From positions 28,541 through 92,540 of the forward strand of contig CAVSGV010000006.1 in the NCBI GenBank assembly GCA_963727815.1: a stretch of DNA of 64,000 nucleotides, written 5' to 3'. Below, one piece after another: positions 7,615 to 27,224 of the stretch (within the stretch, counting starts at the first letter, position 1; each line of letters starts with the position of its first letter). The DNA comes from an uncultured bacterium (GTDB taxonomy: Bacteria; Margulisbacteria; WOR-1; CAVSGV01). A program made the position numbers and the translations under genes. The notes below the pieces were generated by a model that was given only the letters and a program-made list of their open reading frames with translations, was not told where the DNA came from and made no database searches.

Positions 7615-7844
7615 TTACTTCTGTAAAAGCCTATTACCGCTGAACCTTCCTTATCAATTACCTCATTTTTCGTAGCCTTTTTTTGGATAGGGTTACTATT
7701 GAAAGGTAAATTCATAACAGCTAACATTTTAATCTCATATGGCTGCTTTTTGTCCACCATACTCTTTAATTTCGGGTCTTTATCTATCAAAGCATCAAGA
7801 TCAGCTTCGGTAGGATAGAATAATTTTGAAAAAACTGCTGACAT
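7611..7844 (-). CDS. small partner protein of the PIN-like gene (antitoxin-like by position)
   Basis: The ATG giving MSAVFSKLF is preceded by GAGGAG. The track start at 7862 is a TTG sitting on the RBS. It is translationally coupled to the PIN-like gene. Confidence 0.4.
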   Translation of the reverse strand: MSAVFSKLFYPTEADLDALIDKDPKLKSMVDKKQPYEIKMLAVMNLPFNSNPIQKKATKNEVIDKEGSAVIGFYRSK

Positions 7845-8029
7845 AACCTTTAATCTCCTCAATTATTTATCGTCACAAAGGAGAGGGAATTTCACTAATT
7901 GATAGATTATACCCATCCAGATCATAACAAGTCAACCATATTCAATTTAAGGTCGACATTAGCCATCAATGCATTAAATCCGTGTTTCTCTGCATTACAC
8001 GAGGACTAGCATTTACTTGATTGATAACA

Positions 8030-8726: not shown

Positions 8727-8727
8727 T

Positions 8728-9084
8728 TTAGTTGAGGTTTACCTTTATATCCAGAGAGCTTTGTGGCTCAGTTTGATTGAATCGAGGGGCATATTGTTTA
8801 TACATCTGTTTTTCTATGGCTTTCCTCTTTTCTTCTCCTTTAATGCTGGCATATCGAAATGCAAAATTCCCATCTTGTTTAATAAAAATGCTCTCTGAGA
8901 GTTTTTTAGATAACTCATCCCCCAAGTCAGGACTGCTTCCAATAAAAACAACATAAAATTTGTCATCAGGTTCTTTCCTAGAAATACGATAAACCCCCTC
9001 GATCCCATTGAGTAAGGGTTTTATTGCATCATTTGTAAACGGGATAAGCTTAGACCATTGCAAAGTTAGATCGAGGTTTTCCAT
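8728..9084 (-). CDS. small GIY-YIG-like protein (divergent)
   Basis: GVYRIS...FYVVFIGSSPDLGDEL...EEKRKAIEKQMYKQYAPRFN follows the GIY...YIG...E...N spacing of GIY-YIG nucleases. Its stop lies 1 nt before the ATG of the proteasome-like gene. Confidence 0.4.
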   Translation of the reverse strand: MENLDLTLQWSKLIPFTNDAIKPLLNGIEGVYRISRKEPDDKFYVVFIGSSPDLGDELSKKLSESIFIKQDGNFAFRYASIKGEEKRKAIEKQMYKQYAPRFNQTEPQSSLDIKVNLN

Positions 9085-9138
9085 ACAGTTTATTTTTTAT
9101 CCTTTCCTATCATCGTTTTTCTTGGGATTTTAAGTACT

Positions 9139-9526
<388 letters not shown>

Positions 9527-9675
9527 CATGGGAAAAATACAGCGAGGAATATAAAGAATATGAGGAATTCAAGAAAAAACATAACGTGGGGCTCAATGAA
9601 TTATTCCCAAAGGGCCATATGCCCCCCGTTCAACCTAAAAAATACGGCTAGGCGTAGAAGCGGGCTCTTGAAGAG

Positions 9676-10677
9676 ATGAAAAATAAGCCACAAACTGAGA
9701 CAGGGAAATTGCTTTCAAGAATGTTTGATAACAAGTTTGATATAACAGACCTCAAAGAAGCACTCAAAATCAGCGATTGGATACTTCTCATGGATGAGGA
9801 CGAATATTCAGAGAGTTTCTTAGCAAAGAAAATCTTTAATTCAATCATTGATTACACATCATTTGAGGTTATGCCAGACAAGAAAACGGCAAAGACACTA
9901 CGCAATGATCTGGATGATTACTTGGAAAGCTTTATCAAAAATACGCTCAAAACGAGTTCCCGTGAAAGAAGAGTCAGCGAGATAATCGTCCTACAAAACC
10001 CCAATATCTACACATTTAATAAACACAAAGAAATGATCCTCGCACTGTTTCAAGATATGCGGGAAAATTATGGAGACACTTTTGTGTTTGAAAATCCTTT
10101 TGAGGGAATACCATTTGAAGCAGACAATAAAGAGAGTATACAGCAACGTTACGCCGCCAGACAGTTTCTTTTTATACATGCTATCCTTGCTTTTGAAAAA
10201 CTCGGATATATCAAAATTCTTGCACTCGGAAATAATTGGCATTGGGCAAACGCCAATGATGATAATCTTAAATATTATGCAAAAATTCAATTGCTCCCAT
10301 CTCTCTACCAAGGACAGAAGCATGAAATAGATGGCACAAATAAAACCGACAAGACAATCTGGTCATATAATCCATCGACAGGGATACTTTCGATTAACGG
10401 CAAAAACATCCAATTTAAGAAAAATAATTTTAGGGCTAAGGTTTTAGAGCTATTAACCAAAAACAGTAGAAACATGAATAAAAAATGGTCGTGGGATGAG
10501 ATTTACGAGGCAATCGAAAGGAAAAGAAGCGAAGAAAAGTTAGGGAAAGAAGAACAAGATAAAGTTTATTACGCTTGTGAAGGCATTACTGAATATATAG
10601 CAAATAAAAGTGGTGTAACCGGATTTATTATATTTGATAAGCAAACCGCACGAATAAACCCCGTATTACTGCCTTGA
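9676..10677 (+). CDS. hypothetical 333-aa island protein (possible C-terminal winged-helix)
   Basis: Long ORF with AT-rich codon usage matching the island. The C-terminal segment KKWSWDEIYEAIERK...VYYACEGITEYIANKSGVTGFIIFDKQTARINP looks like a DNA-binding wHTH. I recognise no family. Confidence 0.5.
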   Translation: MKNKPQTETGKLLSRMFDNKFDITDLKEALKISDWILLMDEDEYSESFLAKKIFNSIIDYTSFEVMPDKKTAKTLRNDLDDYLESFIKNTLKTSSRERRVSEIIVLQNPNIYTFNKHKEMILALFQDMRENYGDTFVFENPFEGIPFEADNKESIQQRYAARQFLFIHAILAFEKLGYIKILALGNNWHWANANDDNLKYYAKIQLLPSLYQGQKHEIDGTNKTDKTIWSYNPSTGILSINGKNIQFKKNNFRAKVLELLTKNSRNMNKKWSWDEIYEAIERKRSEEKLGKEEQDKVYYACEGITEYIANKSGVTGFIIFDKQTARINPVLLP

Positions 10678-10681
10678 TTTT

Positions 10682-10714
10682 GTAGGTCTACCGTAGGTCT
10701 ACTTAGGCCTACAC
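10682..10714. repeat. three tandem 11-bp units (iteron-like)
   Basis: GTAGGTCTACC / GTAGGTCTACT / TAGGCCTACAC, directly downstream of the 333-aa gene and about 420 bp upstream of the Rep remnant. Confidence 0.5.
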
Positions 10715-10871
10715 CTCATTTAGTAAGCTTAGCTTAATGTTAAACAGCGAAGCCGAACAATCATTTGAATACGATAAGGACATCAGCAATTTATCTCTTA
10801 CTGATGAAGAGATTAAAAGAGTTGCTGACCTCTTCGCTATTCTTGATCAAAGTTGATCAGAGAATAAAAAA

Positions 10872-11168
10872 ATGAAAACAAAGATAAGTGAAATACAAAT
10901 AACGCCGATTAAAGCTAAAGACGGATTGGTAGCTATAGCTAGTTTTGTCTATAACGGGGATTTTTATATGGGGTCAATCGGGATATACACAAGGCCACAA
11001 GCCGGATACCGATTGACCTACCCCACCCGTAAGACTGCTAACAATAGTTTTAACATTTTCCATCCGATCAACAAAACCATTGCGGAGGAAATTGAGAAAG
11101 CAGTAATCAGTAAATTTGAAGAGGTAATGAATCTGTATGATAGACACAATAGTATTAACACTGAGTAA
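10872..11168 (+). CDS. SpoVG-like DNA/RNA-binding protein
   Basis: Aligns by eye to SpoVG: KISEIQITPIKAKDGLVAIASFVYNGDF...YPTRKTANNSFNIFHPINKTIAEEIEKAV. Compare B. subtilis ...RAIASITLD...PSKRTPDGEFRDIAHPIN. Confidence 0.7.
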   Translation: MKTKISEIQITPIKAKDGLVAIASFVYNGDFYMGSIGIYTRPQAGYRLTYPTRKTANNSFNIFHPINKTIAEEIEKAVISKFEEVMNLYDRHNSINTE

Positions 11169-12306
11169 AGATATGTATCATATAACCGAACCGGATAAAT
11201 TTAAACCATCGGCACGCTGGATCAATACTGATACAGGCCGAATAGGGAAGCCGTGCCTATATAACATCTAAGCAAAACCCGACAAAAACTGAATTGCATA
11301 ACGGTATTTATAAGCCACGCCTTACTTTGACCAACCGTTTTAACCATACTGGAAGATATGAAGCATCATTGAAGATCGAGCTTTCTTTACCAAAACTTCT
11401 ATATGGAAATAACTTTGATGAATTAAAAGATTCTGATTTTGAAACGGTCTCAAACAAATTGCAAGAACGGCTAAAAGAAATGGGCGTTCATGTTTTCTAA
11501 GCAACTGCTTATCAAAGCTCCTGTTTCGGCGGTGCATTACTCAAAAAACATACCGCTTACAGACGGCTCGACCCCTTATCATTACATAAAGAAAATCAAA
11601 GAAGCTAATATCACTCAAGCTCTCGATACAAATCAAACAGATTTTCGCAATGATGGCCATAGCTTTAAGTGGCACTGCAATTCTTACGAAGTGGCATTCT
11701 ATGACAAGATCAAAGACCTTGAAGTATCAAAGAAAAGCGAAAAGCGGGCGATAGAAAAAGACAATGTTATGCAATTAGGGCTTTTTGATAAACTGAAAAA
11801 AAGAAGGCTATTTGAAGTTTTGAGGATGGAGGTTAGACTAAATAAACGGCAAAAAATAAGTCAGATATTCAAAAAGCTTGAGATAGGCAGTGAGATAACA
11901 TTTCAAAGTGTTTTTGACGCAAAAAAATCCCAAATAGTTTTATGCATTATCTTGTCGAGGTAGAAAAGCAAAGGCCAGCCCTATTAGACCGGACATATAA
12001 CGATCCCCAAGCATTTTGGCTGATATTGTTATAAGCAATCCAAATCTGAGAGCAAGACAAGCATTACAGGCTTTTGGATTAAAGCAGGCGTTTGATAAAA
12101 TTGGGATGCGGGAGCTAAGAAAGATACTTAACAGATTAAGTGATCGGTCTTGGTATCGTTTAGTTAAAACTATCAAGCAAGTAAAACTTGCGAAAAAGAA
12201 TGACACGTTCGGGGTTATCCGCAAACATCTATTATCTTTTGAATCCCTGAAGTTAGTTAATTTTCAAAATGTCATCGATAATAAAAGAAGCTTGAACAGC
12301 GTATGA
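11137..12306 (+). pseudogene. rolling-circle replication initiator remnant (phage/plasmid gene II/X-like), four frame breaks
   Basis: Pieces read MIDTIVLTLSKDMYHITEPDKF... (11137-11271), ...SKQNPTKTELHNGIYKPRLTLTNR...SLPKLLYGNNF (to 11500), ...EVLRMEVRLNKRQK (11490-11963), MHYLVEVEKQRPALLDR (third frame) and ADIVISNPNLRARQALQAFGL (12016-12306). The family assignment is from memory. Confidence 0.5.
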
Positions 12307-12517
12307 TTAGCAAGAAAAGGCATAATGCCACAGAACGCAGGGCAAACGAGGCTCATAGGGGCTATTATCAGGCATTACAGGTGTTTTTACGGGCTTTTGG
12401 GGATAAGGGACGCTAAGGATCGGAGAGCTTGCACAGCAAACGGGGTAAGATAGGAATGGAATTTTCAGATAAAAAGGGCTTGATAATGTCTGTAAACCAT
12501 TGTAAAGTATATAGCAT

Positions 12518-12694
12518 ATGAAAACACAAGAATATTATTTAGCACAAGAGCTGGCCGACAAACTAAGAGTAAACATTATGACGATTTACCGCTACATCAA
12601 AGCTGGGAAGCTTGTTGCACATAAAATTGGCAAAGAATTTCGTATAAGCAATAAAGAGTTTCAGTCATTTTTAACTAAGGCGAAAACAAAATAA
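12518..12694 (+). CDS. excisionase-family helix-turn-helix protein (58 aa)
   Basis: MKTQEYYLAQELADKLRVNIMTIYRYIKAGKLVAHKIGKEFRISNKEFQSFL matches the Xis/MerR-type HTH pattern (...TvYrwikeGklpa.kiGr.wRi). It is below the ORF-track size cut-off and ends 4 nt before the RM gene. Confidence 0.6.
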   Translation: MKTQEYYLAQELADKLRVNIMTIYRYIKAGKLVAHKIGKEFRISNKEFQSFLTKAKTK

Positions 12695-12698
12695 ATAT

Positions 12699-15600
12699 AT
12701 GGACATAAAAGAATTACAAACTAAATGGAACAAAGAAAAGGGATACTACAAAACAAAAGAAGTCGGAGATGGACTACAACACTTTATTCGTCAATTATTT
12801 GAATGCCCCGCCCTATTTAACTTAAAACAAGGAAGCGGAGTAACAAAACATACTAAAAGAAAAAACGAGTTCACCATTGAAACCCGCAAAAGAGATAAAG
12901 CTGGTCAAGCTGATTACATCATTTTTATTGATGGAATAAACATTGTAATTCCTGTTGAAGTTGAAAAATACGAAAACATTAAAGCTGGCGAAAAACAGTT
13001 ACTAAAATATCAATTAGCATGGGATAGAAAATATGGCATTTTGACCGATGGCTTTACTTGGCGTTTCTATAATAACACCTCTTATATAACATTCAATATT
13101 GATGATTTATTTTCAAACACTAAAATATTTCTTACTTTCTGGAAAGAATATATAAAGCCTGAAAATTATTACCTCTCCTTCTTTGAAGAACAAGGTCAAC
13201 TATCATTATTTCAGAAAAATAGCGTTAAAGTTGAACGAGATCGAGAGTTATTCTTTGAAGACATAACGAGGTTAATTGATAACTTTAAGAATAAACTGAA
13301 TTTAGCTGGGTATTTTAACAGTAAAGATAAAAAGGAAAATGATAAAAAAGCAACGGAAATTACTTATGCTTACTTCATTCAATTTATTTTATATAAAAAT
13401 CTTGTTGATAATTGCTACCATAGTTTTGAAGATGAATTCAAGCAAAGGATAGAAGCTATACATAGAAGCTTAAAAGCAGAGGTTTATGATGCTGTCCTTA
13501 CGAACATAAAGAGTATTTCTAAGTTTATTTCTGAGAAGCTTTACAAGCCTTTTAATAAGGAACAAGAGTTCATAAATATTCATCTTGAGGAAATATTAAA
13601 TAAACCGAAAACCGAATTGTCAGATATATCCTTATGGTTAGATATTATTGTTTTCATAAATAGATATGACTTCTCAAATATAAGCAAAGACATCTTTGGT
13701 TATATTTACGAAAACTACTTAAAAGACCTCTATGACGAAACGAATAAAGGACAATACTTTACTGACCCAGCCATAGTTGAATTTATGTTAGATGAAATTG
13801 GTTATACTGAAAGAACAATCCAAAACAAATATCAGCAAGGAAAACTAAAAGAACTCTCATTGATTGATCCGAGCTGTGGGAGTGGCACTTTCCTTTATTG
13901 TGCCACCAATAGACTTATAAATGCTTTGTGGGATGATAATACTGAAAAAAAATCAAAACTCGTTGAAGATGCAATAAATAATAATATATTTGGATTAGAT
14001 ATTGCTGAATTTCCTCTTTATCTGGCTGAAATGAATATTCTAATGCGAATGTTGCCTTTAATTGTTAACGAAAAATACAACAACCCCATAGATAAGAAAA
14101 TCAAAGTTTTTAAGACAAATGATAGTGTTTCAGAATTTTTAGACATTAGAGGACAAAATCTTCAAGGTGATTTGTTTAATCAAAAGCTTTTAGCCCTAGG
14201 GTATGCGAGTTACATTCGGAATGAAGACGATTTGAAAGATATGAAGACAAGCTTGATCCCGCCCAAAAAACGTTTTGATTATGTTATTGGTAATCCACCT
14301 TATATTGGCTATAACGAATGTTGTAAACAGAAAATCTTAATTTTTGAACTGATAAAACAAAGAAAAAGTATTATTAAATGATATTTATGGTGTTAATTTG
14401 CATAGTATTCCAAACAATCCCAAACGATATAGGCCAAATCCGAATCTTTATGCCTTTTTTGTAGCGTTAGGCTTAGAATTATTAAAAGATAATGCGGTTA
14501 TATGTTACATTATTCCTCAAACAATATTAACGTCTGGGGATTTTGATGTTTTACGTTATCATTTATCAAAAAAAACTACAATTAAAAAGATTATTACCTT
14601 TGAAGGTAAAATGTTTATTGGGAGAGGATTAAAACAAAAAAACCCTGTTGCAACATCGAGCTTGATCTTTGTTGTTAAAAAGTCTTCCGCAAATGAAAGC
14701 CATAAAGTTACTATCGTAAACTACAAAGACTATAATGAGCCGGAATTTGAAAAATATTTGAGGGGACGCAACAAAGAAACCAAAACTATATTGCAGGCTG
14801 AACTACTAAAGAATATTAAAAATTGGAACTTCATAAAACAAAATGATACCTTTATAAGAATGTATGACAGCTATCTTGAAACAACACAAGATATGTCAAA
14901 TTATTATGAACATGATAGTGCGAGGAAAACATACAATAGCACCTTCTATTTTGATGGCGGCTATAGCATTGATGAGAAGCAACTCTTAAATGCCCCAGAT
15001 TTTTATATCTATCCTAAAATAAATAACAACTATTATACGATAAGAGACGCAAGAGGGTTTTGGCCAAATATTAGGCAGGGAAATTCTAAGCATAGGATAG
15101 ATTTAAGACAAGGTAATCAAGAATATCATTTATTGGATAGTGAATATAAAATTATCTGGTCATACGCAAATATGCAAAGATTCTTTTTTACAGACAAACC
15201 TGTCATATGGGCGAGAAATCAATTTAATGCTATTGGCTCAAATAACAAGAGCGAACTTTTATATTTATTTTCTTTACTTAATTCGAGCTTAAACTTTTGC
15301 ATATTAAAAAGCATGTTAAAAAGTGAGAACGAGAAGGATTTTTTGATCGCAACTAATTCCGTGAAGCAATTCATTCGAGCCCCAATTATAAACCAAAACA
15401 ATCAAATAATTAAAGATGAGATTATAAAACAAACGGAGATTATGCTTAATTTGGAAACCTCTTCTATGTCAAATTATGTTGATTTTGGAAACATACAAAT
15501 GCAAAAGTTTGACAGGGTTGAATTCGACAACAAGAATCTTATCTTATATAAAGAAAATAATAGAATCTTAGCTAAAATTAAAAGCAATCCTGAGTTAATT

Positions 15601-15855
15601 AAGCAAATTATTGCCGATAAATATAGCGAAAAGAATTTGGCTGGCAATCCAATTATTTCATTAACAGAACTTAAATCAACCCCAGTTATTGATTGTAATG
15701 AACAGGAAAGTGTTAAAGATTATATTGATACACTTGTATTTGCTCTGTATTTCAATATTAAGCTTAGTAAAGTAGGATTTGAATATGCTAAACGAATCAA
15801 AACGAAATGTAAGGGAAACAAGTTTTATACTTATATTGAATCTGGAGAACAATGA
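12699..15855 (+). CDS. type IIG restriction-modification enzyme (nuclease + N6-adenine methyltransferase + specificity domain), frame break at 14356-14370
   Basis: N-terminal PD-(D/E)xK-like motif ADYIIF...IPVEVEK followed by GILTDGFTWRFY. Methyltransferase motif I is IDPSCGSGTFL and motif IV is GNPPYIG. The second ORF frame is open from 14356 (NKEKVLLNDIYGVNLHSIP), so removing one A from the AGAAAAAG run fuses both ORFs. Confidence 0.8.
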
Positions 15856-17360
15856 AAGCAATAATTGTCGCACGAGTATCCACTGAAGAGCAAAAGGAAG
15901 CTGGCAATTCCCTCCCCGCTCAAATTGCACGACTTAAAAAGCATTGTCAAGGCAAGGGGTTTGAGGTCGCAAAAGAATTCAGCTTCGACGAAAGTGCATA
16001 TAAAGAGCATCGAGATGACTTCGATAACATCCTTGATTATGTTATCAGCCAAAAGGAAAAAATAGTTGTTTGTTTTGACAAGGTAGATCGGCTGTCCCGA
16101 AACATCTTTGATAAACGAGTATCCCTGCTCTACGAAAAAGCGTTAAAAGACGAGATTGAACTTCACTTTGTATCAGATGGACAGGTTATCAATAGCCAGC
16201 TTTCCGCAGTGGAAAAGTTCAATTTCAGCATGAGTCTTGGGCTTGCTAAATATTATTCGGATGCCATAAGCGACAACGTTAAAAGGGCACAGGAACAAAT
16301 CCTAAGAAGCGGTAGATACCCCCACTCGCTCCCTTATGGATATAAAAAAATCATACGAGATGATGGTAAAAGTAATTATGTAATTGATGAATATGCCTCC
16401 CGAATAGTCCAGAAAGTTTTTGAATGGTATGCAACCGGAGCATTTTCAATGAATTTGATCCTTGATAAGCTGATAAAAGAATATGGGATCAAATGGTCAA
16501 AGAGCTTTTTGGATAAAGTCCTTAAAAATACTTTCTATTATGGGCTTATGGTATGGAAGGGTAAGACATGTAAACATGGGTATCCGACCATCATTACCTA
16601 TGCCCTGTTTGAACAAGCACAACAAGTAAAAGCTGGCCATAATAAAAAGAAATTCAAATATGCTGGGCTTCCGTATATTTATCGAGGCCTTATTCGATGC
16701 AACCATTGCGGGCTTGCTATTACTCCTGAAAAACACAAAGGGCATGTTTATTACCATTGCACAGAATATAACGGCAAACACGATGCCAAGTGGCTTAAAG
16801 AAGAAGCTATAACCGAACAACTTAGCCAAGTATTCAAAAAACTACGCTTACCGGATCATGTCATGGATAAAGTTATTAACACACTCAAAAATGTCCATGA
16901 GGATAAAAATCAATTTAGGGATAAGCAATATGAGGAATTATCAAAAGAACATCAACTCTATACAGCCAGAAGCGACAAATTGTATGTCGACAAACTCGAT
17001 GGGCGTATTACTGACGTTGCCTATGACAGATATTATCAATCCTTCAGGGATAAGATAGCCGAAATGGATGCAAGATTAGCCTTACTTCAAGATGCCGAAG
17101 ATAATTACTATATCACTGTGAAATACTTGCTAGACATAGCTAAAAGAGCTAATGATCTATTTGTCTGTTCGGAAGTTGAAGAAAAAAGGCAAATTATCAA
17201 GTTAATACTTCCGAACCTTAGGATGGATGGCAATACTTTGCGATATGAAGCACAAAAACCGTTTGATTCTCTACTCGCTTATGCGGATAGTAAAGGAAAG
17301 CTCAGCTCAAGGTTCACGTCCTGGATCGTCCTGTTCGCGTTCACGACGTCAAAATTATAA
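15852..17360 (+). CDS. large serine recombinase (integrase)
   Basis: The resolvase-type N-terminus AIIVARVSTEEQ carries the catalytic Ser. A recombinase domain, a zinc ribbon CNHCGLAITPEKHKGHVYYHC and a C-terminal coiled-coil region follow. Its last 20 codons run across the right junction into host DNA. Confidence 0.9.
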   Translation: MKAIIVARVSTEEQKEAGNSLPAQIARLKKHCQGKGFEVAKEFSFDESAYKEHRDDFDNILDYVISQKEKIVVCFDKVDRLSRNIFDKRVSLLYEKALKDEIELHFVSDGQVINSQLSAVEKFNFSMSLGLAKYYSDAISDNVKRAQEQILRSGRYPHSLPYGYKKIIRDDGKSNYVIDEYASRIVQKVFEWYATGAFSMNLILDKLIKEYGIKWSKSFLDKVLKNTFYYGLMVWKGKTCKHGYPTIITYALFEQAQQVKAGHNKKKFKYAGLPYIYRGLIRCNHCGLAITPEKHKGHVYYHCTEYNGKHDAKWLKEEAITEQLSQVFKKLRLPDHVMDKVINTLKNVHEDKNQFRDKQYEELSKEHQLYTARSDKLYVDKLDGRITDVAYDRYYQSFRDKIAEMDARLALLQDAEDNYYITVKYLLDIAKRANDLFVCSEVEEKRQIIKLILPNLRMDGNTLRYEAQKPFDSLLAYADSKGKLSSRFTSWIVLFAFTTSKL

Positions 17361-17956
17361 TCCCTGCAAATGTTGACGAACTCTTTTTTGACCTTGTTCT
17401 GGTATTTGATCATGCTGTCGAACCAGTCCCTTGAAAATCCCATGTCCATTCCAGACTCCCAATAGTCAAGCGCGGGGTGGGAACTCAGCGTGCGGTCTAC
17501 GAGCGTTTTCATCGAAAGATCCAGGAAGAACACCGCATCGGGAACGAGTGCCATTTGATACAGCGACTTTACCCATTCGCCTTCCGCTCCCCTGACGATG
17601 TCGCGTATCATCAGAGTGAAAATATATCGATCGGCCAGGACGACGCACCCGGCGTTCAAAGCAGGCATGATGTTGTTTTCAAGCTGGTCGTAAAAATCGG
17701 TCGCGTAGAACAGCGACATGGTCCGAGGACTCAGCACGTTGCCATTCTTCGCCGTCTCAAGCTCCTCGCTGACCAGGAGGGACCTTTTTAATCCCGCGCT
17801 TACCACGGCATAGCCTTTCTGTTCCAGCCAGGGGATGAGGTTCGCGATGTGCGTGGACCTTCCGGAAGAATCCATGCCCTCGATGACTATAAGCGCTCCC
17901 TGCAGCTTTTTCGGCTCAACTCCCGCCGGCGGCTTGCCGAAGAATTTGTTGCTCAT
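17279..17956 (-). CDS. thymidylate-kinase-like P-loop protein 2 (Walker A Lys replaced by Arg); 3' end replaced by island DNA
   Basis: VIEGMDSSGRST P-loop and a LADRYIFT DRY-type motif. The tail ...LELSFPLLSA is encoded by island sequence from 17300 downward. ATGA overlap with the upstream paralog. Confidence 0.7.
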   Translation of the reverse strand: MSNKFFGKPPAGVEPKKLQGALIVIEGMDSSGRSTHIANLIPWLEQKGYAVVSAGLKRSLLVSEELETAKNGNVLSPRTMSLFYATDFYDQLENNIMPALNAGCVVLADRYIFTLMIRDIVRGAEGEWVKSLYQMALVPDAVFFLDLSMKTLVDRTLSSHPALDYWESGMDMGFSRDWFDSMIKYQNKVKKEFVNICRDYNFDVVNANRTIQDVNLELSFPLLSA

Positions 17957-18630
17957 ATCTCTCTCCTCTTGTGATGCTCGGCAAGGTCGATCTTTTTCGA
18001 TATCAGCTCCCTTACCTGCATCTGCATAACATTGATCTTTTGCGTCGCGTCTATCTCGCTGAACCCGAATTCCTTGGACATGGCGTTATATTGTTCATGT
18101 ATCCGACCCTGGAAGAGCTTAAAGCTTTCTTTTATGTCCGGTGAAAGGTTAAGGTCCTGACCGGCCTCAAAATACTTCAACTCCGGCCGGCCTTCAAGGA
18201 TTCTGGAAAGCGCGACATCAAGAGGGACCTTGAAATAGAGGATGATGTCCGGCTCCTGAACGAACCCGTAAAGCTTCCTTAACCAGGCGGGATCGCATCC
18301 TCTTACGGTATCCCTCGCGTAAGAAGTGTATATGTACCTGTCGCAAAGCACGATGTACCCGCCTTTCAGCATGGGGAGTATCTGCCGCTCATACCGGTCG
18401 GCGAAATCCGTCGCGTGTATGAGGCTGAAGGTGGTGGGCGTAAGGAGCCTGCGTTTTTTGGCTTTCTTTGTCGCTTCCTTCACGAGTTCGCTTGAATTCC
18501 ATTCGGTGAAGAACACCTTGTAGCCGAGCCCTAAAAGCCATTTATACACAAGATAAATCTGAGTGGATTTACCAGACCCATCGAGTCCTTCCACTGCTAT
18601 TAATTTCCCCGCCAGCCCCATGTCCTTCAT
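17953..18630 (-). CDS. thymidylate-kinase-like P-loop protein 1
   Basis: AVEGLDGSGKSTQ P-loop and a CDRYIYTSYA motif. ATG at 18630 forms an ATGA overlap with the ppx stop. The track start at 18711 is probably an over-extension. Confidence 0.75.
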   Translation of the reverse strand: MKDMGLAGKLIAVEGLDGSGKSTQIYLVYKWLLGLGYKVFFTEWNSSELVKEATKKAKKRRLLTPTTFSLIHATDFADRYERQILPMLKGGYIVLCDRYIYTSYARDTVRGCDPAWLRKLYGFVQEPDIILYFKVPLDVALSRILEGRPELKYFEAGQDLNLSPDIKESFKLFQGRIHEQYNAMSKEFGFSEIDATQKINVMQMQVRELISKKIDLAEHHKRREI

Positions 18631-20216
18631 TTTATGTTCCTTTGAGATATCAATCTCGGCTTGACCCTGAATAACCTGACGAACAGCTTCGCTTTTCTTT
18701 CGAATGCCCACGTATCAAGCGATATCATCCTTCTCGCGTGATAATAGATCTTTACTTTCCTTTTGTTCATGACGACCTTTATCTTCCGTATCCTCTGCAG
18801 ATGGTCCCTGTCAAGCGCGTCGGCGATCCTTAAGATGGACGCTAGCCTCGCGACTATCTTCCGGTTCTCGCTGCTCAACTTCATGAACTGGTCGTGTCTT
18901 ACCGTAGGCTCGCTTTTTCTGTGATATCTCGCTATGTTAGCGGCCATCACCATGTCGAGCGGCGAAAAGCTGGGAAGCTCGAACTGCGAGATCATGTACA
19001 TGGAATGTTTATGGTGGTTCTTGTAGCTGATGCACGTCCCGATATCGTGGAGCAGCGACGCGGCAAGGAGGAGCTTCCTTTCGTACGGGCCGAGCTTATG
19101 CAGGCTTCGTAATTGATCGAAAAGCGAGAGCGACAGCTTGGACACATGAGATCCGTGTTTCTCCTCAAAATTGAACTTTCTTCCAAGGTTAAGGGCGGAT
19201 TCACAGATCATTTTCTCGTGTTCTTTTATCCATTCTCCTCTTTTGGATATCTCCCGCATGAGGTCGATTATGACGCCTTCCTTCACGCCGACGAAAGGAA
19301 CGGTTATCGATTTCGCTTTGACCTGGTTCGCCACGTGGGAATAGACCATGGCGGCCGGAAGTATCACGTCGGCCTTATCGCTGCTCAATGAAAATCTCTT
19401 CATCCTTTCTTTTTCGGAATACTTTGACAGCTGTTCGGCGAAGTTCTTCAGTTTCTTGACGTTTATTATCCGAACGCCCTGATTATCGGGGGTCGAGCCG
19501 ATGAGATGGCTTATCCTTTCGATATTGCCTCCTGTCGCTATGATTCTGCGGCAGCGGAAAGCTTTTTTTATCTTGAAGATGGATATGAATTCCTTAAGCA
19601 GCTTATAGAACCTTTTTGGGTCGTTCCTCGCGATATCGAATTCCTCAAGAAGCCTTACCGCGCCGATGCCCCTTGATTCCGTCTGTTTTATGCCTTTTCC
19701 GTCGACCAGCGATATCTCAACGCTGCCGCCGCCAAGGTCCATCAGAAGTGATCGGCCAGATTGAAGGTTAATCTTTTCCCGGACCGACAGATATGCCAAT
19801 CTGGCTTCTTCTATGCTTGATATTATTTCTATCCTGATGCCGATCTTTTTTCTTGCATTATCAATGAGCTCTTTTCCGTTCTTCGCTTCTCTTAAAGCGC
19901 TGGTGGCCACAGCCCTGTAGTAAGAAACGTTGAATGACATCATTTTCGCGTTTATTACGCTAAGCACGGAGAGGGCATCGCCGATCGTCTTCTTGTCGAG
20001 ATACCCGCCGAGAAAAACGCTTTTCCCCAGCCTTAACGGGAATCTCTCGGAATATATCGGCGAGTATTGTTCCGGTCCGTAGAATTCGGATATTTGCAGA
20101 CGAACGGCGTTCGACCCGATGCCAACTGCAGCCACCATGACGGGAAAAGGTTTCAGCGGCGCGGTTTTTTGCGGATCCTTGCTATATAGACGGTTTTTCC
20201 ACCCAATCCTTGCCAA
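18627..20216 (-). CDS. ppx: exopolyphosphatase / guanosine pentaphosphate phosphohydrolase family protein with HD domain
   Basis: Ppx/GppA ASKHA-fold N-terminus (VGIGSNAVRLQI...DLGGGSVE) and C-terminal HD region (LLHDIG). The alternative start at 20138 (MVAAVGIGSN) would remove the 35-nt overlap with phoU. Confidence 0.85.
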   Translation of the reverse strand: MARIGWKNRLYSKDPQKTAPLKPFPVMVAAVGIGSNAVRLQISEFYGPEQYSPIYSERFPLRLGKSVFLGGYLDKKTIGDALSVLSVINAKMMSFNVSYYRAVATSALREAKNGKELIDNARKKIGIRIEIISSIEEARLAYLSVREKINLQSGRSLLMDLGGGSVEISLVDGKGIKQTESRGIGAVRLLEEFDIARNDPKRFYKLLKEFISIFKIKKAFRCRRIIATGGNIERISHLIGSTPDNQGVRIINVKKLKNFAEQLSKYSEKERMKRFSLSSDKADVILPAAMVYSHVANQVKAKSITVPFVGVKEGVIIDLMREISKRGEWIKEHEKMICESALNLGRKFNFEEKHGSHVSKLSLSLFDQLRSLHKLGPYERKLLLAASLLHDIGTCISYKNHHKHSMYMISQFELPSFSPLDMVMAANIARYHRKSEPTVRHDQFMKLSSENRKIVARLASILRIADALDRDHLQRIRKIKVVMNKRKVKIYYHARRMISLDTWAFERKAKLFVRLFRVKPRLISQRNIK

Positions 20217-20895
20217 TGAATTTCCTCAATTCTTCTATGTTGTGTTTGATCATTTTCGCTTCGACCATGTATACCACGTCCTCGGCTATGTTCGTCGCGT
20301 GGTCGCATATCCTTTCGAGGTACCTGGCTATGAATATCAATATTACCGATTGCGGAATGACCTTTGGGTTCTTCTGCATAAGAGAGATGAGCTCTTCCTG
20401 GATAAGGTCCCTGTAATGGTCCGCTTCATCGTCCGCTTTCCACACTTCCCTCGCCAGATTTATGTCCCTCTTGATGAACGCGTCTATCGCCCCGCTTACC
20501 ATCCTCTTTGTGACTTCGGCGAATTTCGGAATGTCGACGAGCGGTTTCGGGAACGGATATGCCAGCATCTCAAGCGATCTCTCCGCGATGTCCACCGAAA
20601 GATCGCCGATCCTTTCCAGGTCGGTTATAAGCTTCATTACGCTCGCTATCATCCTCAGGTCGACCGCCATAGGCTGGAACAGAGCGAGCAGGTCCACGCA
20701 TTTCTCGTCGATATCGACCTCAAGCTTGTTTATCCTGTCGTCGCCTCTTATCACGTTCTTCGCCATCTCTTCATCCTTGGTCTTGAGCGATTGGATGGAG
20801 TTGTTTATGGATTCCTCCACGTACATTCCCATCTCGGCTATCATTTTTTTCAGTTGCTGCAGTTCGTCGTCAAAATGCCTATGTTCAGCGAACAT
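20182..20895 (-). CDS. phoU: phosphate signalling complex protein PhoU (copy 1)
   Basis: 237 aa, directly downstream of pstB, with the PhoU repeat motifs DDRINKLEV and DLERIGDLSVDIAE. Confidence 0.9.
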   Translation of the reverse strand: MFAEHRHFDDELQQLKKMIAEMGMYVEESINNSIQSLKTKDEEMAKNVIRGDDRINKLEVDIDEKCVDLLALFQPMAVDLRMIASVMKLITDLERIGDLSVDIAERSLEMLAYPFPKPLVDIPKFAEVTKRMVSGAIDAFIKRDINLAREVWKADDEADHYRDLIQEELISLMQKNPKVIPQSVILIFIARYLERICDHATNIAEDVVYMVEAKMIKHNIEELRKFIGKDWVEKPSI

Positions 20896-20933: not shown

Positions 20934-21698
20934 TTATCCGAATCTTCCGGTGACATAATCTTCGGTTCTCTTGTTCTTCGGAGCCGTAAAAATATTATTG
21001 GTGATGTCAAATTCGATCAACTCGCCCATCAAAAAGAAACCAGTGACGTCCGATACTCTCGCCGCCTGCTGCATGTTGTGGGTAACGATGACGATGGTAT
21101 ATTTATTTTTCAGCTCGTGTATCAGTTCCTCGATCTTTCCCGTGGAGATAGGATCGAGAGCGGATGCGGGCTCGTCCATCAAGAGAATGTCCGGCTTTAT
21201 CGCCAGCGCCCTCGCGATGCACAGCCTCTGCTGCTGGCCGCCGGAAAGGTCCAGCGCGTTCTTGTCCAGGCTGTCCTTCACCTCGTCCCATATCGCCGCC
21301 GCCTTAAGGCTTTCCATCACCATGCGGTCGAGTTCGTCCTTTGACGTTGTGATCTTGTTGATCTTAAGGCCGTACGCAACGTTCTCGTATATCGATTTGG
21401 GGAACGGGTTGGATTTCTGGAAGACCATTCCCACTTTCCTTCTTATCGCGGTAACGTCGATCTCCGGAGCGTAAATATCCTGGCCTTCGATCTCGATCTT
21501 TCCTTCTATCCTCGTGTTCTTTATTATGTCGTTCATGCGGTTGAGCGATCTTAAGAACGTTGATTTGCCGCAGCCGGAAGGGCCGATGAGCGCGCTTACC
21601 TTGTTCTTATGCAGAGAAAGGTTGATGTTCTTCAGCGCCTTTTCGCCGCCGTAATAAAAATTGAAATCGGTCACCTTTACAGCAATATCATTGTCCAT
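20934..21698 (-). CDS. pstB: phosphate ABC transporter ATP-binding protein
   Basis: Walker [10 protein letters not shown], signature LSGGQQQRL, Walker [12 protein letters not shown] and the PstB-typical C-terminus [10 protein letters not shown]. Confidence 0.95.
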
Positions 21699-22562
21699 TT
21701 ATATTCTCCTTATCTGCCTGAATTTATATCGAATGTAGATCGCTATCGAATTGAACAGAAGGACGAAGAACACGAGCACCGCGGCGGTCCCGTAAGCCAG
21801 CGGACGCACCTTGATGATGTCGACGTGCTGGGTGGACATGACGAAAAGATGGTAAGGCAGCGCCATGTACTGGTCGAATATCGATGACGGAAGATGCGGG
21901 ATATAGAACGCGACCCCGGTGAAAAGCAGCGGCGCCGTTTCTCCCGTGGCTCTTGATAATCCCAGTATCGCGCCGGTCAGGATGCCGGGGATCGAATACG
22001 GCAGGACCGATGTCCTTATCATCTGCCATTTTGTCGCCCCAAGCGCAAGAGCTCCGGCCCTGTAAGCGTCCGGGACGGCTTTCAGCGCTTCTTCGCTGGC
22101 GGTTATCGTCCACGGAAGCGTAAGCAGGCCCATCGTAAGGCCGGATGCGATGACCGACGTGCCCATGCGCATCGAATTGACGAAAAGGGCGACCCCGAAA
22201 AGGCCGTAAACGATGGACGGAACGCCGGAGAGATTCCTGATGGAAAGTCTTATCACGCGGTTGATGGTCGTGTCTTTCGCGTATTCGTTCAGATATATTG
22301 CCGCGAAAACGCCGACCGGAATTGCGAAGAGAGCGGTAATGAAGGTCACGTAGAAAGTTCCCACGATGCACGGGAATATTCCGCCCTTCGTCATGCCCTC
22401 GCGCGGCGCGGTGAAAATGAACTGCGGGGTGATGACGCCTGCTCCTTTTATGAGTATGTCGATGACGATCCATGCGATGATGGCGATGACAAGAAAGACC
22501 GGTATCATTATCAGCCAGTTGATCAAGCCTTCGTATTTTTTCAGTTTGGATACGTTCGCCAT
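21699..22562 (-). CDS. pstA: phosphate ABC transporter permease PstA
   Basis: Polytopic permease with an EAA-like loop (EEALKAVPDAYRAGALALGATKWQ), positioned between pstC and pstB. Confidence 0.9.
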   Translation of the reverse strand: MANVSKLKKYEGLINWLIMIPVFLVIAIIAWIVIDILIKGAGVITPQFIFTAPREGMTKGGIFPCIVGTFYVTFITALFAIPVGVFAAIYLNEYAKDTTINRVIRLSIRNLSGVPSIVYGLFGVALFVNSMRMGTSVIASGLTMGLLTLPWTITASEEALKAVPDAYRAGALALGATKWQMIRTSVLPYSIPGILTGAILGLSRATGETAPLLFTGVAFYIPHLPSSIFDQYMALPYHLFVMSTQHVDIIKVRPLAYGTAAVLVFFVLLFNSIAIYIRYKFRQIRRI

Positions 22563-22563
22563 G

Positions 22564-23445
22564 TCAGTATTTTTTAACCCTGTGAGTAAAGTAATCAGCC
22601 GCCAGGTTCACGATGAAAGTTATTATGAAAACGTACAATCCCAGAGCGAACAGCGCGTAATAATGGGTGGTATCATAGGGCACTTCGCCGAGTTCCGTCG
22701 CGATGTTGGCGGTCAGCGTCCTCACCGAATCGAAGAAAGACATCGGCATGGCGGCAGCGTTCCCGGTAGCCATTAGGACGGTCATGGTCTCCCCTATTGC
22801 GCGCCCCATTCCCAGCATTATCGACGCCAGTATCCCCGATGATGCCGCCGGAAGAGTGACGAAGAATAGCGTCTGCCACTTGTTGGCGCCAAGAGCGTAG
22901 GAGCCTTCCTTGTAGAAATTCGGGACCATTAATATGGCGTCTTCGGAAATGCTGATGATCGTTGGAAGCGCCATTATCCCCAGAAGGAAAGAACCGTTGA
23001 GCGCGTTGAGTCCGTTGGAGAGATGGAATATCCTGGCGATTATCGGTGAAACCACCACGATGCCGAGGAAGCCGAGGACGACCGACGGTATCCCGGAGAG
23101 TATCTCGATGACGGGCTTGATTATCTCCCGCTCTCTGGGACCGGCTATTTCCGCCATGTATGCGGCCGTAAAGATGCCGATGGGAACCGCAAATATCAGC
23201 GCACCTATAGTAACCATGAACGTTCCCACCAGCATTGCGAGTATCCCGTAAGTTGATTCACTGTAGCCGTCGGGATTCCAGATGGGTTTAAGGAAATCCA
23301 GGATCGGTATCGCCTTGAACGCGGGAATGGAATTGACGATGAGGAGCACGAATATCCCAGCGAGGACGATTATCGACAGGAAAGCGCTGAAAAGGAACAA
23401 TCCCTCGAGCGCTTTCTCATAATAATTCTTTTTTAATTTTTTCAA
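22564..23445 (-). CDS. pstC: phosphate ABC transporter permease PstC
   Basis: Polytopic permease (SEDAILMVPNFYKEGSYALGANKWQT), positioned between pstS and pstA. Confidence 0.9.
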   Translation of the reverse strand: MKKLKKNYYEKALEGLFLFSAFLSIIVLAGIFVLLIVNSIPAFKAIPILDFLKPIWNPDGYSESTYGILAMLVGTFMVTIGALIFAVPIGIFTAAYMAEIAGPREREIIKPVIEILSGIPSVVLGFLGIVVVSPIIARIFHLSNGLNALNGSFLLGIMALPTIISISEDAILMVPNFYKEGSYALGANKWQTLFFVTLPAASSGILASIMLGMGRAIGETMTVLMATGNAAAMPMSFFDSVRTLTANIATELGEVPYDTTHYYALFALGLYVFIITFIVNLAADYFTHRVKKY

Positions 23446-23542: not shown

Positions 23543-24433
23543 CTATTTCAGGTTAGCCTCATTCACCTGTACATAATTAGGCGTGATCGCGTAAAAGCCC
23601 TGCGATTTCAATATCGCCTGGCCCGCGGCTGAAAGCTCGAAATCTATGAACGCTCTCAGATCGCCCGACGGCTTGCCGTTGAAATAATGGTACAGCGGCC
23701 TTGCTATCGGATATTTTCCGCTCAACACATCAGCCTCGACCAGCGGTGAGACCGCGTCGCTTCCTGCCTGTGCAGCTATGCTCAACACGGAGATACCGTC
23801 AATGGTCTTGTTGGTAGTGGTATCCTGCGTGTATCCAACACCCACATATCCTATTCCCGCCCTGTCCGCTTTGACCGCATCCACTATCTGCGAGTTTCCG
23901 CTCATCCTGTTCATTTTCATGGAATACTCGCCCTTCATGACGTTCTGGCGGAAATAAACGAAAGTGCCGGAGCTGGCCTGCCTGCCGTAAAGTGAAATGG
24001 CCATATCCGCACCGCCCACGTCTTTCCAATTCGTTATTTCGCCTTTATATATCTTCGCTACCTGGTCCACGGTAAGCGAACTTACCTTATTGGCCTTGTT
24101 CACTACTATCGAGAGGCCGTCTATTCCGAACACTATGTAATTGACGTCTATTCCTCTCGCGCGGCACTGGACCACCTCACTGGGTAATATCGCCCTTGAG
24201 GCTATTGCCATGTCCGCTTTGCTGTTTATCAGCGCCGCGAATCCCGTTCCGGAACCCCCGCCAGTGACGGCTATGGACGTTCCCTCGTTCTGGTTCATGA
24301 ACGCTTCCGCGATCGCCTGCACCGCGTTAAGCTCCGTATCGGATCCTTTTATCTGGAGCGTGTTCGCGAACGCAGCTGAACAGAACATTATCGCTACGAT
24401 CGCAATGAGCGATCCTGTTATCAACTTTTTCAT
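23543..24433 (-). CDS. pstS: phosphate ABC transporter substrate-binding protein
   Basis: Signal peptide followed by IKGSDTELNAVQAIAEAF...TGGGSGTG, a PstS/PBP-like pattern. It is the first transporter gene of the pst cluster. Confidence 0.9.
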   Translation of the reverse strand: MKKLITGSLIAIVAIMFCSAAFANTLQIKGSDTELNAVQAIAEAFMNQNEGTSIAVTGGGSGTGFAALINSKADMAIASRAILPSEVVQCRARGIDVNYIVFGIDGLSIVVNKANKVSSLTVDQVAKIYKGEITNWKDVGGADMAISLYGRQASSGTFVYFRQNVMKGEYSMKMNRMSGNSQIVDAVKADRAGIGYVGVGYTQDTTTNKTIDGISVLSIAAQAGSDAVSPLVEADVLSGKYPIARPLYHYFNGKPSGDLRAFIDFELSAAGQAILKSQGFYAITPNYVQVNEANLK

Positions 24434-24488: not shown

Positions 24489-24527
24489 GTTACAGTAATG
24501 TTAAATCCCTGTAACATTCCCGTTAAT
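24489..24527. promoter_or_regulatory. candidate Pho-box array upstream of pstS
   Basis: Four hexamers at exactly 11-bp spacing: GTTACA 24489, GTTAAA 24500, GTAACA 24511 and GTTAAT 24522. A minus-strand TATAAT lies at 24473-24468, 15 bp from the nearest hexamer, with no obvious -35. Confidence 0.5.
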
Positions 24528-25636
24528 TAGTACGACCACTTCACCTGGAACACTGTCTGATACTGCGTATAGGCTGCATTGGTACTGGCGTTGTAGGGGG
24601 TCGCTCCTCCACCAAGCTGATTGCCGCAAGCATACGTCAGTTTGGACGAGTTCAACTGGAAGAGCAGGTCGGTCGTCCAGTGGTAATTCACAGCGTATAT
24701 CATCAGGTCCTGTGAATTTGTCCTTATATCGCCGTTGCCCGTTAACGCAAGGTCGGAATAAAGCTGATTGTCGACGTCTGGATTGTAAACGTCTTCTCTC
24801 ACACCGATATCCCACTTGTCGTTGATCGTCCACATAACTAACTTTGAGTTGCCCTGAACATGGTAGCTTTGAGTATCCGCTGCATTGGGTTTCATGCCGT
24901 CGACGCCTTCCCACATGAACCAGAGAGGACCGGCATAGTAGTTCACCGCTAGGCCGTTATACCATTTTCCGGTGACCGTATTCTGGTAAGTGGTAGCGTC
25001 GCTGCTCCCTACCAACGAGTTGTACAATGATCCTCTGATCGAAAGACCCGGTAACGGATACAGGCCTAAACTGATGTCTGTCGCTGTGTTATTGTCCGTC
25101 TCAGTCGGTTTTGCGTAACCGTTGCCGCCGTATGCCGCGACCTGGTAATCGGCCCAACCTCCCGGAAAATATCCCTGCAATGACATTCCTAGGTCGGCGC
25201 TGGAGATCAATCCGAGATTGTCCTCAAGGTTCTTGTATATCATCGGATACTGCCATTTATCGATCATGGCGAAATATACCGGCTGTTGTCCAAACCTGGC
25301 AAATCCGCCTTCCGGAAGAAGGTTAAGGATGTCAACATAAGCGGATTTCACGAACGCGGTCCAGTCATCGTTGGTCGTATTGCCCGACTTCATCGGAATG
25401 TCCAATGTTAAATTGCCAGCGAGGTTATCCTCGTAGCTCATTTTCCAGGTCATGTAGGCCCTTTCAATGGACATTTTTGAAGTGTTCGTCTGTTCATCCG
25501 AGTATATCTGGTTGTTCCCGGTATCCCTGAACCATGTGTAGCCGGAGAACTGAATGTCGCTCGCCGCGGCGAAAACGCCCGGCACAAATATCGACATTAT
25601 CAGCATTGACAGACACAGTAACTTTAACGTTTTCAT
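24527..25636 (-). CDS. putative outer-membrane beta-barrel porin, first gene of the pst operon
   Basis: Signal peptide (FVPGVFAAAS), alternating Tyr/Gly/Asn-rich pattern throughout and an aromatic C-terminal residue (...FQVKWSY). The position suggests a phosphate-regulated porin. No specific family was verified. Confidence 0.55.
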   Translation of the reverse strand: MKTLKLLCLSMLIMSIFVPGVFAAASDIQFSGYTWFRDTGNNQIYSDEQTNTSKMSIERAYMTWKMSYEDNLAGNLTLDIPMKSGNTTNDDWTAFVKSAYVDILNLLPEGGFARFGQQPVYFAMIDKWQYPMIYKNLEDNLGLISSADLGMSLQGYFPGGWADYQVAAYGGNGYAKPTETDNNTATDISLGLYPLPGLSIRGSLYNSLVGSSDATTYQNTVTGKWYNGLAVNYYAGPLWFMWEGVDGMKPNAADTQSYHVQGNSKLVMWTINDKWDIGVREDVYNPDVDNQLYSDLALTGNGDIRTNSQDLMIYAVNYHWTTDLLFQLNSSKLTYACGNQLGGGATPYNASTNAAYTQYQTVFQVKWSY

Positions 25637-25892: not shown

Positions 25893-27224
25893 TTAGGGGG
25901 CTTTTTTCAGAGTGAAAGTGAACGTGGAGCCTTCATTGATGCGGCTCGAAACGGAGACCTTCCCGCCGTAAAGCTCGATGATGTGCTTCACTATGGAAAG
26001 TCCCAGACCCGTGCCGCCCAATTCCCTCGATCTGGCTTTATCCGTTGTGTAGAACCTTTCGAAGATCCTGGGAAGATGTTCTTCTTCTATGCCGATGCCG
26101 GTGTCGGCGACGGAGAACCTGGAATATCCGTTCTCGCTCTTTCCGCTGATAGTTATCGAACCGCTCGTTTTGTTGTATTTCACCGCGTTGTCCAGCAGGT
26201 TAAGGAATACGCGGAAGAGATGGTCCTCCGAACAGAACACGCTCATGGCATCGCTCTCGAGATCTATCTTGACGTTTATCTTCTTATCATTGATCTTGGA
26301 TGAAACCGTGTCGATGGCGCGCTCGATCACATCTTTGACCTTTATGGACCTTACTTCTTTCGGCCTGCCGCTTTCTTCAAGGCTTGAAAGCTCAAGGATG
26401 TCGTCAATAAGGGCGGAAAGCCTTTCGGAATTCTTCACGATCTTTTTAAGGAAATCGATATTGTGCTCCTTGTCGTTGACGGCGCCGTCAAGCAGCGTCT
26501 CCGCGGACGACTTGATCGATGTGAGCGGCGTCTTCAGTTCGTGCGATACGTTCGACGTGAATTCGCTCCTGATGTTCTCAAGCTCCTTGATCCTCGTTAT
26601 GTCGTTCAGGACCGCCATCGCTCCTCCCCCGCCTATCGGAACGGTATGGACCAGAAGATGTTTTTCTTCCGGCTGGGTCACGGATATCTGTATCTCGTTC
26701 GCGCTTTTGCCGGACATGACAGACCTTATCGAAGCCGTAAGCTCCGGCTGTCTTATTCTCTCTATGAAGTCGCGGCCGAGCACCTCGCTCTCATTCAAGC
26801 TGAGCAGTTTTTCCGCGGCGCTGTTAATAAGTATGACGTTCTCGTTCCCGTCAATGGCTATGACGCCTTCGGCCATGGATGACAGTATCGCTTTCATCCT
26901 GTCCTTTGATGAAGAAAGTTCATCTATGGTCCTGGAAAGCCTTTCCTGAAGCTCGTTGATGGAATCCTCTATTCTCCTGAATTCTGAGCGGGTATTGGAC
27001 CTTATATGCTTGAATTTGCCGACTGAAATGTCGAATATCTCATCGGAGATCCTGTCGATGTTCGATATGAAGAATGATGAGAGCCATGTGGAGTAAACTG
27101 TAATGATCACAAGGATCAACGTGATACTTAAGAGAGAAACTTGCGCGAAGACGACTATCACTATGCTCAGTACGAGGACCGCCGCGTATGACAGGAATAT
27201 TTTCCAGTAGATATTTTCTTCCAT
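25893..27224 (-). CDS. phoR: phosphate regulon sensor histidine kinase
   Basis: N-terminal TM region, PAS-like segment, H-box FTSNVSHELKTPLTSI, and N/G boxes LLDNAVKY and DTGIGI...GGTGLGLSIV. It is adjacent to the phoB-like regulator and the pst operon. Confidence 0.85.
   Translation of the reverse strand: MEENIYWKIFLSYAAVLVLSIVIVVFAQVSLLSITLILVIITVYSTWLSSFFISNIDRISDEIFDISVGKFKHIRSNTRSEFRRIEDSINELQERLSRTIDELSSSKDRMKAILSSMAEGVIAIDGNENVILINSAAEKLLSLNESEVLGRDFIERIRQPELTASIRSVMSGKSANEIQISVTQPEEKHLLVHTVPIGGGGAMAVLNDITRIKELENIRSEFTSNVSHELKTPLTSIKSSAETLLDGAVNDKEHNIDFLKKIVKNSERLSALIDDILELSSLEESGRPKEVRSIKVKDVIERAIDTVSSKINDKKINVKIDLESDAMSVFCSEDHLFRVFLNLLDNAVKYNKTSGSITISGKSENGYSRFSVADTGIGIEEEHLPRIFERFYTTDKARSRELGGTGLGLSIVKHIIELYGGKVSVSSRINEGSTFTFTLKKAP

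Follow-up and report, generated by a model that had tools for sequence, protein, structure and literature searches.

TmkL1 and TmkL2 of an uncultured WOR-1 bacterium as a probable catalytic and partner subunit pair of the family-3 polyphosphate kinase PPK3, encoded with Ppx in a putatively Pho-controlled pst operon

The 64,000-nucleotide stretch of DNA analysed here, referred to as the window, comes from an uncultured bacterium (GTDB lineage Bacteria; Margulisbacteria; WOR-1; CAVSGV01; GenBank assembly GCA_963727815.1, contig CAVSGV010000006.1, positions 28,541 to 92,540) and carries, downstream of phosphate-uptake genes, a ppx gene followed by two genes of the thymidylate kinase (Tmk) fold, TmkL1 and TmkL2. 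Very probably these two genes encode the catalytic and the partner subunit of a family-3 polyphosphate kinase, PPK3, placed together with Ppx in a Pho-controlled pst operon; membership of the family is read from sequence, and the activity is proposed by analogy with the characterised archaeal enzyme. The pair is a further member of a published enzyme family, not a new system. The original prediction, made from the window without database searches, had proposed that an active and a degenerate Tmk-fold protein may form a polyphosphate- or nucleotide-salvage kinase acting with Ppx under Pho control, and the polyphosphate-linked reading is supported, as the pair falls within the characterised PPK3 family (PMC12995831).

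PPK3 was described in Sulfolobus acidocaldarius (Hofmann et al., J Biol Chem 2026, PMC12995831; preprint 2024, 10.1101/2024.08.28.610084), where two “thymidylate kinases” encoded beside ppx constitute a heteromeric polyphosphate kinase. Saci_2019 is the catalytic subunit (cPPK3) and Saci_2020 an inactive one (rPPK3) that drives α2β2 assembly and raises activity about ten-fold, its own inactivity being ascribed to the loss of the DRX arginine; neither protein has deoxythymidine monophosphate (dTMP) kinase activity, the true dTMP kinase being Saci_0893. The enzyme is reversible and favours the formation of ATP from polyphosphate and ADP. The same work notes PPK3 in “a few” bacteria, predicts PPX and Pst as operon neighbours in bacteria, and finds the PPK3 neighbourhood to resemble that of PPK1 (PMC12995831).

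Both window proteins match the Thymidylate_kin profile PF02223 of Pfam, TmkL1 with 81 bits and TmkL2 with 67.8 bits in the search of the window's open reading frames (ORFs). Against the dTMP-kinase equivalog model TIGR00041 of NCBIfam, TmkL1 scores 90 bits, just over the cut-off of 83.25, and TmkL2 78.5 bits, under it; the marginal pass of TmkL1 accounts for the public label “dTMP kinase” on its homologues. Among all PDB sequences, TmkL1 is closest to ST1543 of Sulfurisphaera tokodaii (2plr/5h70; 213.7 bits, E 1.9e-62, 52% over 210 residues), a cPPK3 homologue of solved structure (PDB 2plr, 4nzy, 4rzx, 5h70), compared with 53 bits for the best canonical Tmk. TmkL2 has the same best match (120 bits to 2plr vs at most 42 bits for canonical Tmk), with pairwise identities of 34% to archaeal cPPK3 and 30-32% to archaeal rPPK3. 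Its AlphaFold2 monomer model (mean predicted local distance difference test score, pLDDT, 87.9) superposes best on 5h70, with template-modelling (TM) scores of 0.86/0.93 and a root-mean-square deviation of 1.5-1.6 Å, while canonical Tmk structures reach a TM score of about 0.73.

Maximum-likelihood trees, built from Sulfolobaceae pairs (retrieved with ST1543), bacterial pairs and the canonical tmk genes of the source genome and its relatives, separate canonical Tmk from PPK3 with support of 100/100; the branch between them measures about 2 substitutions per site. Neither protein groups with housekeeping Tmk, a grouping that would have spoken for an ordinary dTMP kinase. TmkL1 falls inside the cPPK3 clade with ST1543 (support 91/87), and TmkL2 lies among bacterial partner subunits (97/86). 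The partner subunits as a whole formed one rPPK3 clade in a quick tree (Shimodaira–Hasegawa-like approximate likelihood-ratio test 90) and a basal grade in a careful tree with more taxa, and on the strict orthology of bacterial and archaeal partners the two trees disagree; by pairwise identity TmkL2 is no nearer to archaeal rPPK3 than to archaeal cPPK3.

The source assembly (1.68 Mb in 6 contigs, about 70% complete) holds three PF02223 matches: the two window genes, scoring 80 and 66 bits in this search, and a canonical tmk on contig 3 (G000:C3:337-903; 174.5 bits), which groups with the tmk genes of relatives in both trees. The separate bona fide tmk, for which the original prediction had asked as a check, is thus present. 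The original prediction had also pointed to the P-loop kinase fold shared with PPK2: the assignment as a polyphosphate kinase is supported, and a PPK2 relationship is rejected, PPK3 being derived from the dTMP-kinase superfamily and PF03976 (PPK2) matching neither TmkL1 nor TmkL2 nor any other protein of the assembly. PF02503 (PPK1) is likewise without a match in the assembly, an absence that is provisional at about 70% completeness. PPK3 appears to be the sole polyphosphate kinase of the source genome.

Motifs were counted over the best 120 bacterial homologues of each subunit, 7 Sulfolobaceae partners and 3 partners of a second bacterial group. The translations contain all four peptides that had first drawn attention to the pair, GLDGSGKST in TmkL1, GMDSSGRST in TmkL2, and KYFEAGQDLN and DYWESGMDMG in the respective inserts. 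TmkL1 keeps, besides its P-loop, CDRY and the basic stretch KKAKKRR; EGLDGSGKS is found in 117/120 catalytic homologues, which also keep DRY. The Walker-A exchange of lysine for arginine in the partner (G-R-S/T) recurs in 119/120 bacterial, 7/7 archaeal and 3/3 second-group sequences and, judged from these alignments, can be taken as a hallmark of partner subunits in this family. The insert, suspected from the outset to be foreign to housekeeping Tmk, proves to be a stretch of 12 residues after the lid, present in every catalytic and partner PPK3 sequence and absent from 20 canonical Tmk. In the same alignment, the canonical F-A-A-D-R and A-Y-Q columns read H/Y-A-T-D-F and (A/I)-R-D in both subunits; these canonical motifs we take to contact the thymidine nucleotide in thymidylate kinase structures.

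The partner subunit departs from its archaeal counterpart at the DRX position. TmkL2 reads LADRY, and DRY is found in 118/120 bacterial partners, versus DGY in 6/7 Sulfolobaceae partners; as far as sequences can tell, the published account of rPPK3 inactivity by loss of the DRX arginine holds for archaeal partners and does not fit bacterial ones. The top homologues of the catalytic subunit share a mean pairwise identity of 72.6% and those of the partner one of 67.8%, a level that, for the partner, seems unusually high for a mere scaffold. It is tempting, although the idea must be considered quite unlikely, to suppose that the bacterial partner has a working ligand site, with which it would sense ATP/ADP or polyphosphate and set the direction of the reaction, or carry out a second phosphotransfer step, because its Walker-A arginine is invariant, its DRY arginine is kept, its lid and insert read an invariant LDYWESGMD and its conservation across phyla comes near that of the catalytic subunit. 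If so, the Sulfolobus rPPK3, which has DGY and sits on a long branch, would be derived and would have degenerated further. A different partner type occurs in same-phylum families f44-f47 (L046-L058), in which the Walker-A lysine is kept (GSGK-S/T/G) and DRY is changed to NKY; it branches beside cPPK3 and apart from the arginine-type partners, which suggests an independent duplication. In L035 and L044, the lid of the partner is lengthened by a further insertion of about 12 residues.

The pair is set among phosphate-uptake genes (Table 1). From 27911 down to 17279, the minus strand encodes phoB, phoR, a porin-like ORF, pstSCAB, phoU, ppx, TmkL1 and TmkL2 with gaps of 0-97 nucleotides, the phoBR two-component regulator lying directly upstream of the porin-pst genes on the same strand. 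The pst genes match their orthologues in the comparison locus L038 with 425-480 bits. ATGA overlaps, read directly from the sequence, link ppx to TmkL1 (18627-18630) and TmkL1 to TmkL2 (17953-17956), and the initial description of ppx and two ATGA-linked Tmk-fold genes 3′ of pstB-phoU agrees with the ORFs, the Pfam matches and the sequence. Pho-box-like CTGTAAC/TGTTACA repeats with 11- and 22-bp spacing precede both pstS and the porin ORF. A scan for internal terminators in the operon gave no convincing candidate, its count being at chance level, as was the result of a promoter scan. From the position of phoBR and the Pho-box-like repeats we infer that the module is under Pho control and would be induced together with Pst in phosphate limitation.

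The ppx product combines Ppx/GppA (PF02541, 152 bits), domain III (PF21447, 97 bits) and HD (PF01966, 39 bits) regions, and scores 206 bits against the exopolyphosphatase model TIGR03706, under its cut-off of 307. It is 82% identical to the 502-residue L038 orthologue, the alignment starting at residue 28 of the long ORF. Translation probably begins at the ATG at 20138 (503 residues) and not at the TTG at 20216, because the orthologue begins there; this start leaves 43 nucleotides between phoU and ppx.

Table 1. Features of the phosphate operon and of the island that interrupts it (positions in the window)
Feature	Position	Strand	Basis
phoB	27225-27911	-	ORF translation: response regulator with winged-helix C-terminus; named from sequence alone
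phoR	25893-27224	-	ORF translation: HisKA/HATPase kinase; named from sequence alone
porin-like ORF	24527-25636	-	ORF
pstS	23543-24433	-	ORF; match to L038 orthologue
pstC	22564-23445	-	ORF; match to L038 orthologue
pstA	21699-22562	-	ORF; match to L038 orthologue
pstB	20934-21698	-	ORF; match to L038 orthologue
phoU (first copy)	20182-20895	-	PF01895; 237 residues
ppx	18627-20138 (longest ORF to 20216)	-	PF02541, PF21447, PF01966
TmkL1, predicted catalytic subunit cPPK3, 225 residues	17953-18630	-	PF02223; PDB match; tree
TmkL2, predicted rPPK3-type partner, 225 residues	17279-17956	-	PF02223; PDB match; model; tree
large serine recombinase gene	15852-17360	+	Resolvase, Recombinase and Zn_ribbon_recom domains
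integrated island	6736-17300	.	10.6 kb; 30-36% guanine + cytosine vs about 50% in the flanks
severed 3′ end of rPPK3 (RAKIEKVLAEVIR-stop)	6694-6735	-	frame translation; DNA alignment with L038
orf102	6389-6697	-	ATGA-coupled to original rPPK3 stop; 102 codons
second phoU	5624-6337	-	PF01895; 237 residues
low-molecular-weight (LMW) phosphatase	5129-5545	-	PF01451

By analogy with the Sulfolobus enzyme, cPPK3 would catalyse ATP + polyphosphate(n) <-> ADP + polyphosphate(n+1), and the partner subunit, as in Sulfolobus, would assemble it into an α2β2 complex and activate it. Ppx would trim polyphosphate to inorganic phosphate, and Ppx and PPK3 would together form a module for making, using and degrading polyphosphate. 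Transcribed as the distal part of the porin-pstSCAB-phoU operon, such a module would tie polyphosphate turnover to high-affinity phosphate uptake, and incoming phosphate could be banked as polyphosphate, or polyphosphate mobilised, during phosphate limitation.

Sequence clustering at 90% identity yields at least 8000 clusters for each subunit, the best 120 all above 300 bits, and the cluster source names include Acidobacteriota, Planctomycetota, Polyangiaceae, Spirochaetota, Longimicrobiales and Omnitrophota, with at least six bacterial phyla among those named. At 50% clustering there are 145 representatives with E <= 1e-30, some of them apparent two-domain fusions. Five proteins, P0241 (460 residues), P0312 (471), P0314 (454), P0247 (696) and P0387 (1610), contain two PPK3-like stretches or a PPK3-like domain in a longer protein and look like natural fusions of both subunits. 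Within the phylum of the source, 21 of 146 genomes encode the PPK3 pair, with adjacent genes in 20 of the 21, and none of five relatives from the source's family does. PPK1 occurs in 6 of the 146, its five strong matches all being in genomes without PPK3, and PPK2 in 8, all of which also have PPK3 and belong to families f45-f46.

Conservation of the ppx-TmkL1-TmkL2 order in relatives, on which the original prediction had made its reading depend, is borne out in distant genomes (L004, L006, L014, L015, L038 and L039). Two of these loci, L038 and L039, share the full pstSCAB-phoU-ppx-cPPK3-rPPK3 arrangement of the window, and in L006 genes for CYTH, CHAD and pst lie nearby. The order is SixA-cPPK3-rPPK3-ppx in L044 and L045 (genomes G017 and G104, of the source's class) and SixA-ppx-cPPK3-rPPK3-CHAD in Sulfolobaceae. 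Across phyla, the ppx-cPPK3-rPPK3 module is found again and again, frequently with pst, CHAD, CYTH or SixA as neighbours. In L006, rPPK3 is split over two frames at 8546-9478 with no gene called, which suggests either a frameshift or an error in the assembly.

In the window, the partner gene has been cut near its 3′ end by an integrated island. A recombinase gene at the right end of this element has a frame that crosses the junction into TmkL2, and a three-way DNA alignment finds the core GAG (CTC on the plus strand) at both junctions, marking the crossover. The island is absent from L038, which has the intact order rPPK3 (232 residues)-orf99-phoU-LMW phosphatase (LMWPc). Codons 1-218 of TmkL2 are native, and the last seven codons (SFPLLSA) with the stop, at 17279-17300, are island DNA; the 13 native C-terminal residues (RAKIEKVLAEVIR) have been exchanged for these 7, and the severed end now lies 10.6 kb away. 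TmkL2 falls 7 residues short of its closest homologues and departs from P0122/P0123 after ...NLEL, the junction falling inside the terminal helix H211-224 of the AlphaFold2 model. The genes orf102, second phoU and LMW phosphatase are the distal genes of the former operon, cut off by the island.

Before the insertion, two 237-residue PhoU paralogues stood in one operon (pstB-phoU ... rPPK3-orf102-phoU), a duplication also seen in L038. Small basic ORFs of 99-131 residues coupled to the end of rPPK3 occur in L038 (9811-10110), L004 (9413-9808) and L006 (9373-9696), and the orf102 family has an invariant motif, K.KP.KGR.KDL, kept in these three loci; orf102 has no Pfam match, and a profile search gave 13 clusters only, without a name or domain. 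Other contents of the island are a gene pair resembling type IIG restriction-modification genes, Rep-like remnants, and an unbroken run of 383 A at 9143-9525, which is an artefact of the assembly or else an extraordinary homopolymer.

Several points weigh against the assignment of a functional PPK3. The activity is extrapolated to bacteria from an archaeal enzyme to which the catalytic subunit is 50-52% and the partner about 30% identical; the basal grade of partner subunits in the careful tree is not a single clade; the lack of PPK1 and PPK2 is to be read against an incomplete assembly; TmkL2 retains the DRY arginine, so a purely regulatory role is not secure for the bacterial partner; and TmkL2 has lost its native C-terminus. 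This last point leads to the strongest rival, unlikely though to be taken seriously: that the proteins are PPK3 by descent, with a module impaired in this organism, since the island truncated the partner within its last helix and parted orf102, phoU2 and the LMW phosphatase from their promoter, leaving at best the roughly ten-fold weaker activity of cPPK3 alone. The replacement of RAKIEKVLAEVIR by SFPLLSA within a predicted helix is in keeping with such a loss, as is the behaviour of the archaeal cPPK3, which alone is about ten-fold less active (PMC12995831). Both frames are, however, otherwise intact and contain all conserved motifs, the alignment columns at the C-terminus belong to the family's least conserved ones, and the end of the TmkL2 model still has a pLDDT of 86-91.

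Two further explanations would remove polyphosphate from the reaction. A heteromeric nucleotide kinase without a polyphosphate donor or acceptor, for instance one that salvages nucleoside mono- or diphosphates or one that acts on (p)ppGpp-type nucleotides handled by Ppx/GppA, would draw on the fact that the Ppx/GppA family includes pppGpp phosphohydrolases and that the ppx product stays under the TIGR03706 cut-off; it is nevertheless highly unlikely given that TmkL1 is 52% identical to its archaeal homologue and shares a clade with an experimentally shown polyphosphate kinase, that CHAD, CYTH and pst genes are repeated neighbours of the pair, and that PPK1 and PPK2 are absent from the assembly. 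The reading given by public annotation, under which the pair would be two copies of an ordinary dTMP kinase, is barely credible, and a duplication of canonical Tmk is rejected: the PF02223 matches of both proteins, the TIGR00041 score of TmkL1 (90 vs 83.25 bits) and the name “dTMP kinase” on the homologues are set against the canonical tmk elsewhere (174.5 bits), the split of about 2 substitutions per site in the tree, the replaced thymidine-motif columns and the lack of dTMP kinase activity in Saci_2019/2020 (PMC12995831).

The identity of such proteins as polyphosphate kinases is already published (2024 preprint, 2026), and the local additions, namely the DRY of the partner, the embedding in pst-phoU and the island-cut partner, are modest. 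Thousands of proteins nevertheless bear the public label “dTMP kinase”, and naming them PPK3 would give polyphosphate metabolism to lineages seemingly without a kinase for it. Among the 146 same-phylum genomes, PPK3 (21) is commoner than PPK1 (6) or PPK2 (8), and the at least 8000 clusters per subunit compare with the “a few” bacteria of the literature. Placement within pstSCAB-phoU offers a direct, testable link of phosphate uptake signalling to PPK3, and the DRY retained in bacterial partners qualifies the published explanation of rPPK3 inactivity.

Compared with the S. acidocaldarius enzyme, the window shows the same adjacent, translationally coupled Tmk-fold pair directly after ppx, with a canonical dTMP kinase elsewhere, and the same set of features: catalytic P-loop lysine, DRY and lysine-rich stretch, Walker-A lysine-to-arginine exchange in the partner, 12-residue insert, and no PPK1 or PPK2 in the genome. 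It differs from the archaeal system in the partner's DRX position (DGY in 6/7 Sulfolobaceae partners; DRY in the window and in 118/120 bacterial partners), in the conservation of the partner, which comes close to that of the catalytic subunit (67.8% vs 72.6% mean pairwise identity), and in its neighbours: where the archaeal loci have SixA and CHAD, the window has pstSCAB-phoU, a small basic ORF, another phoU copy and an LMW phosphatase gene. Its host is a mesophilic-type bacterial metagenome-assembled genome, and a mobile element has interrupted the partner gene. The two-domain class II PPK2 of Pseudomonas aeruginosa (PA3455) likewise couples an active to a degenerate P-loop module for oligomerisation and prefers transfer from polyphosphate to nucleotide (PMC12995831), but belongs to another family (PF03976), is one fused polypeptide and uses AMP, not ADP. 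The Pho-controlled ppk-ppx operons of PPK1 resemble the window in the co-transcription of kinase and exopolyphosphatase, which is predicted for the window, and in their link to phosphate starvation, whereas PPK1 has an unrelated fold and a separate operon, and the window pair lies physically inside the pst-phoU unit.

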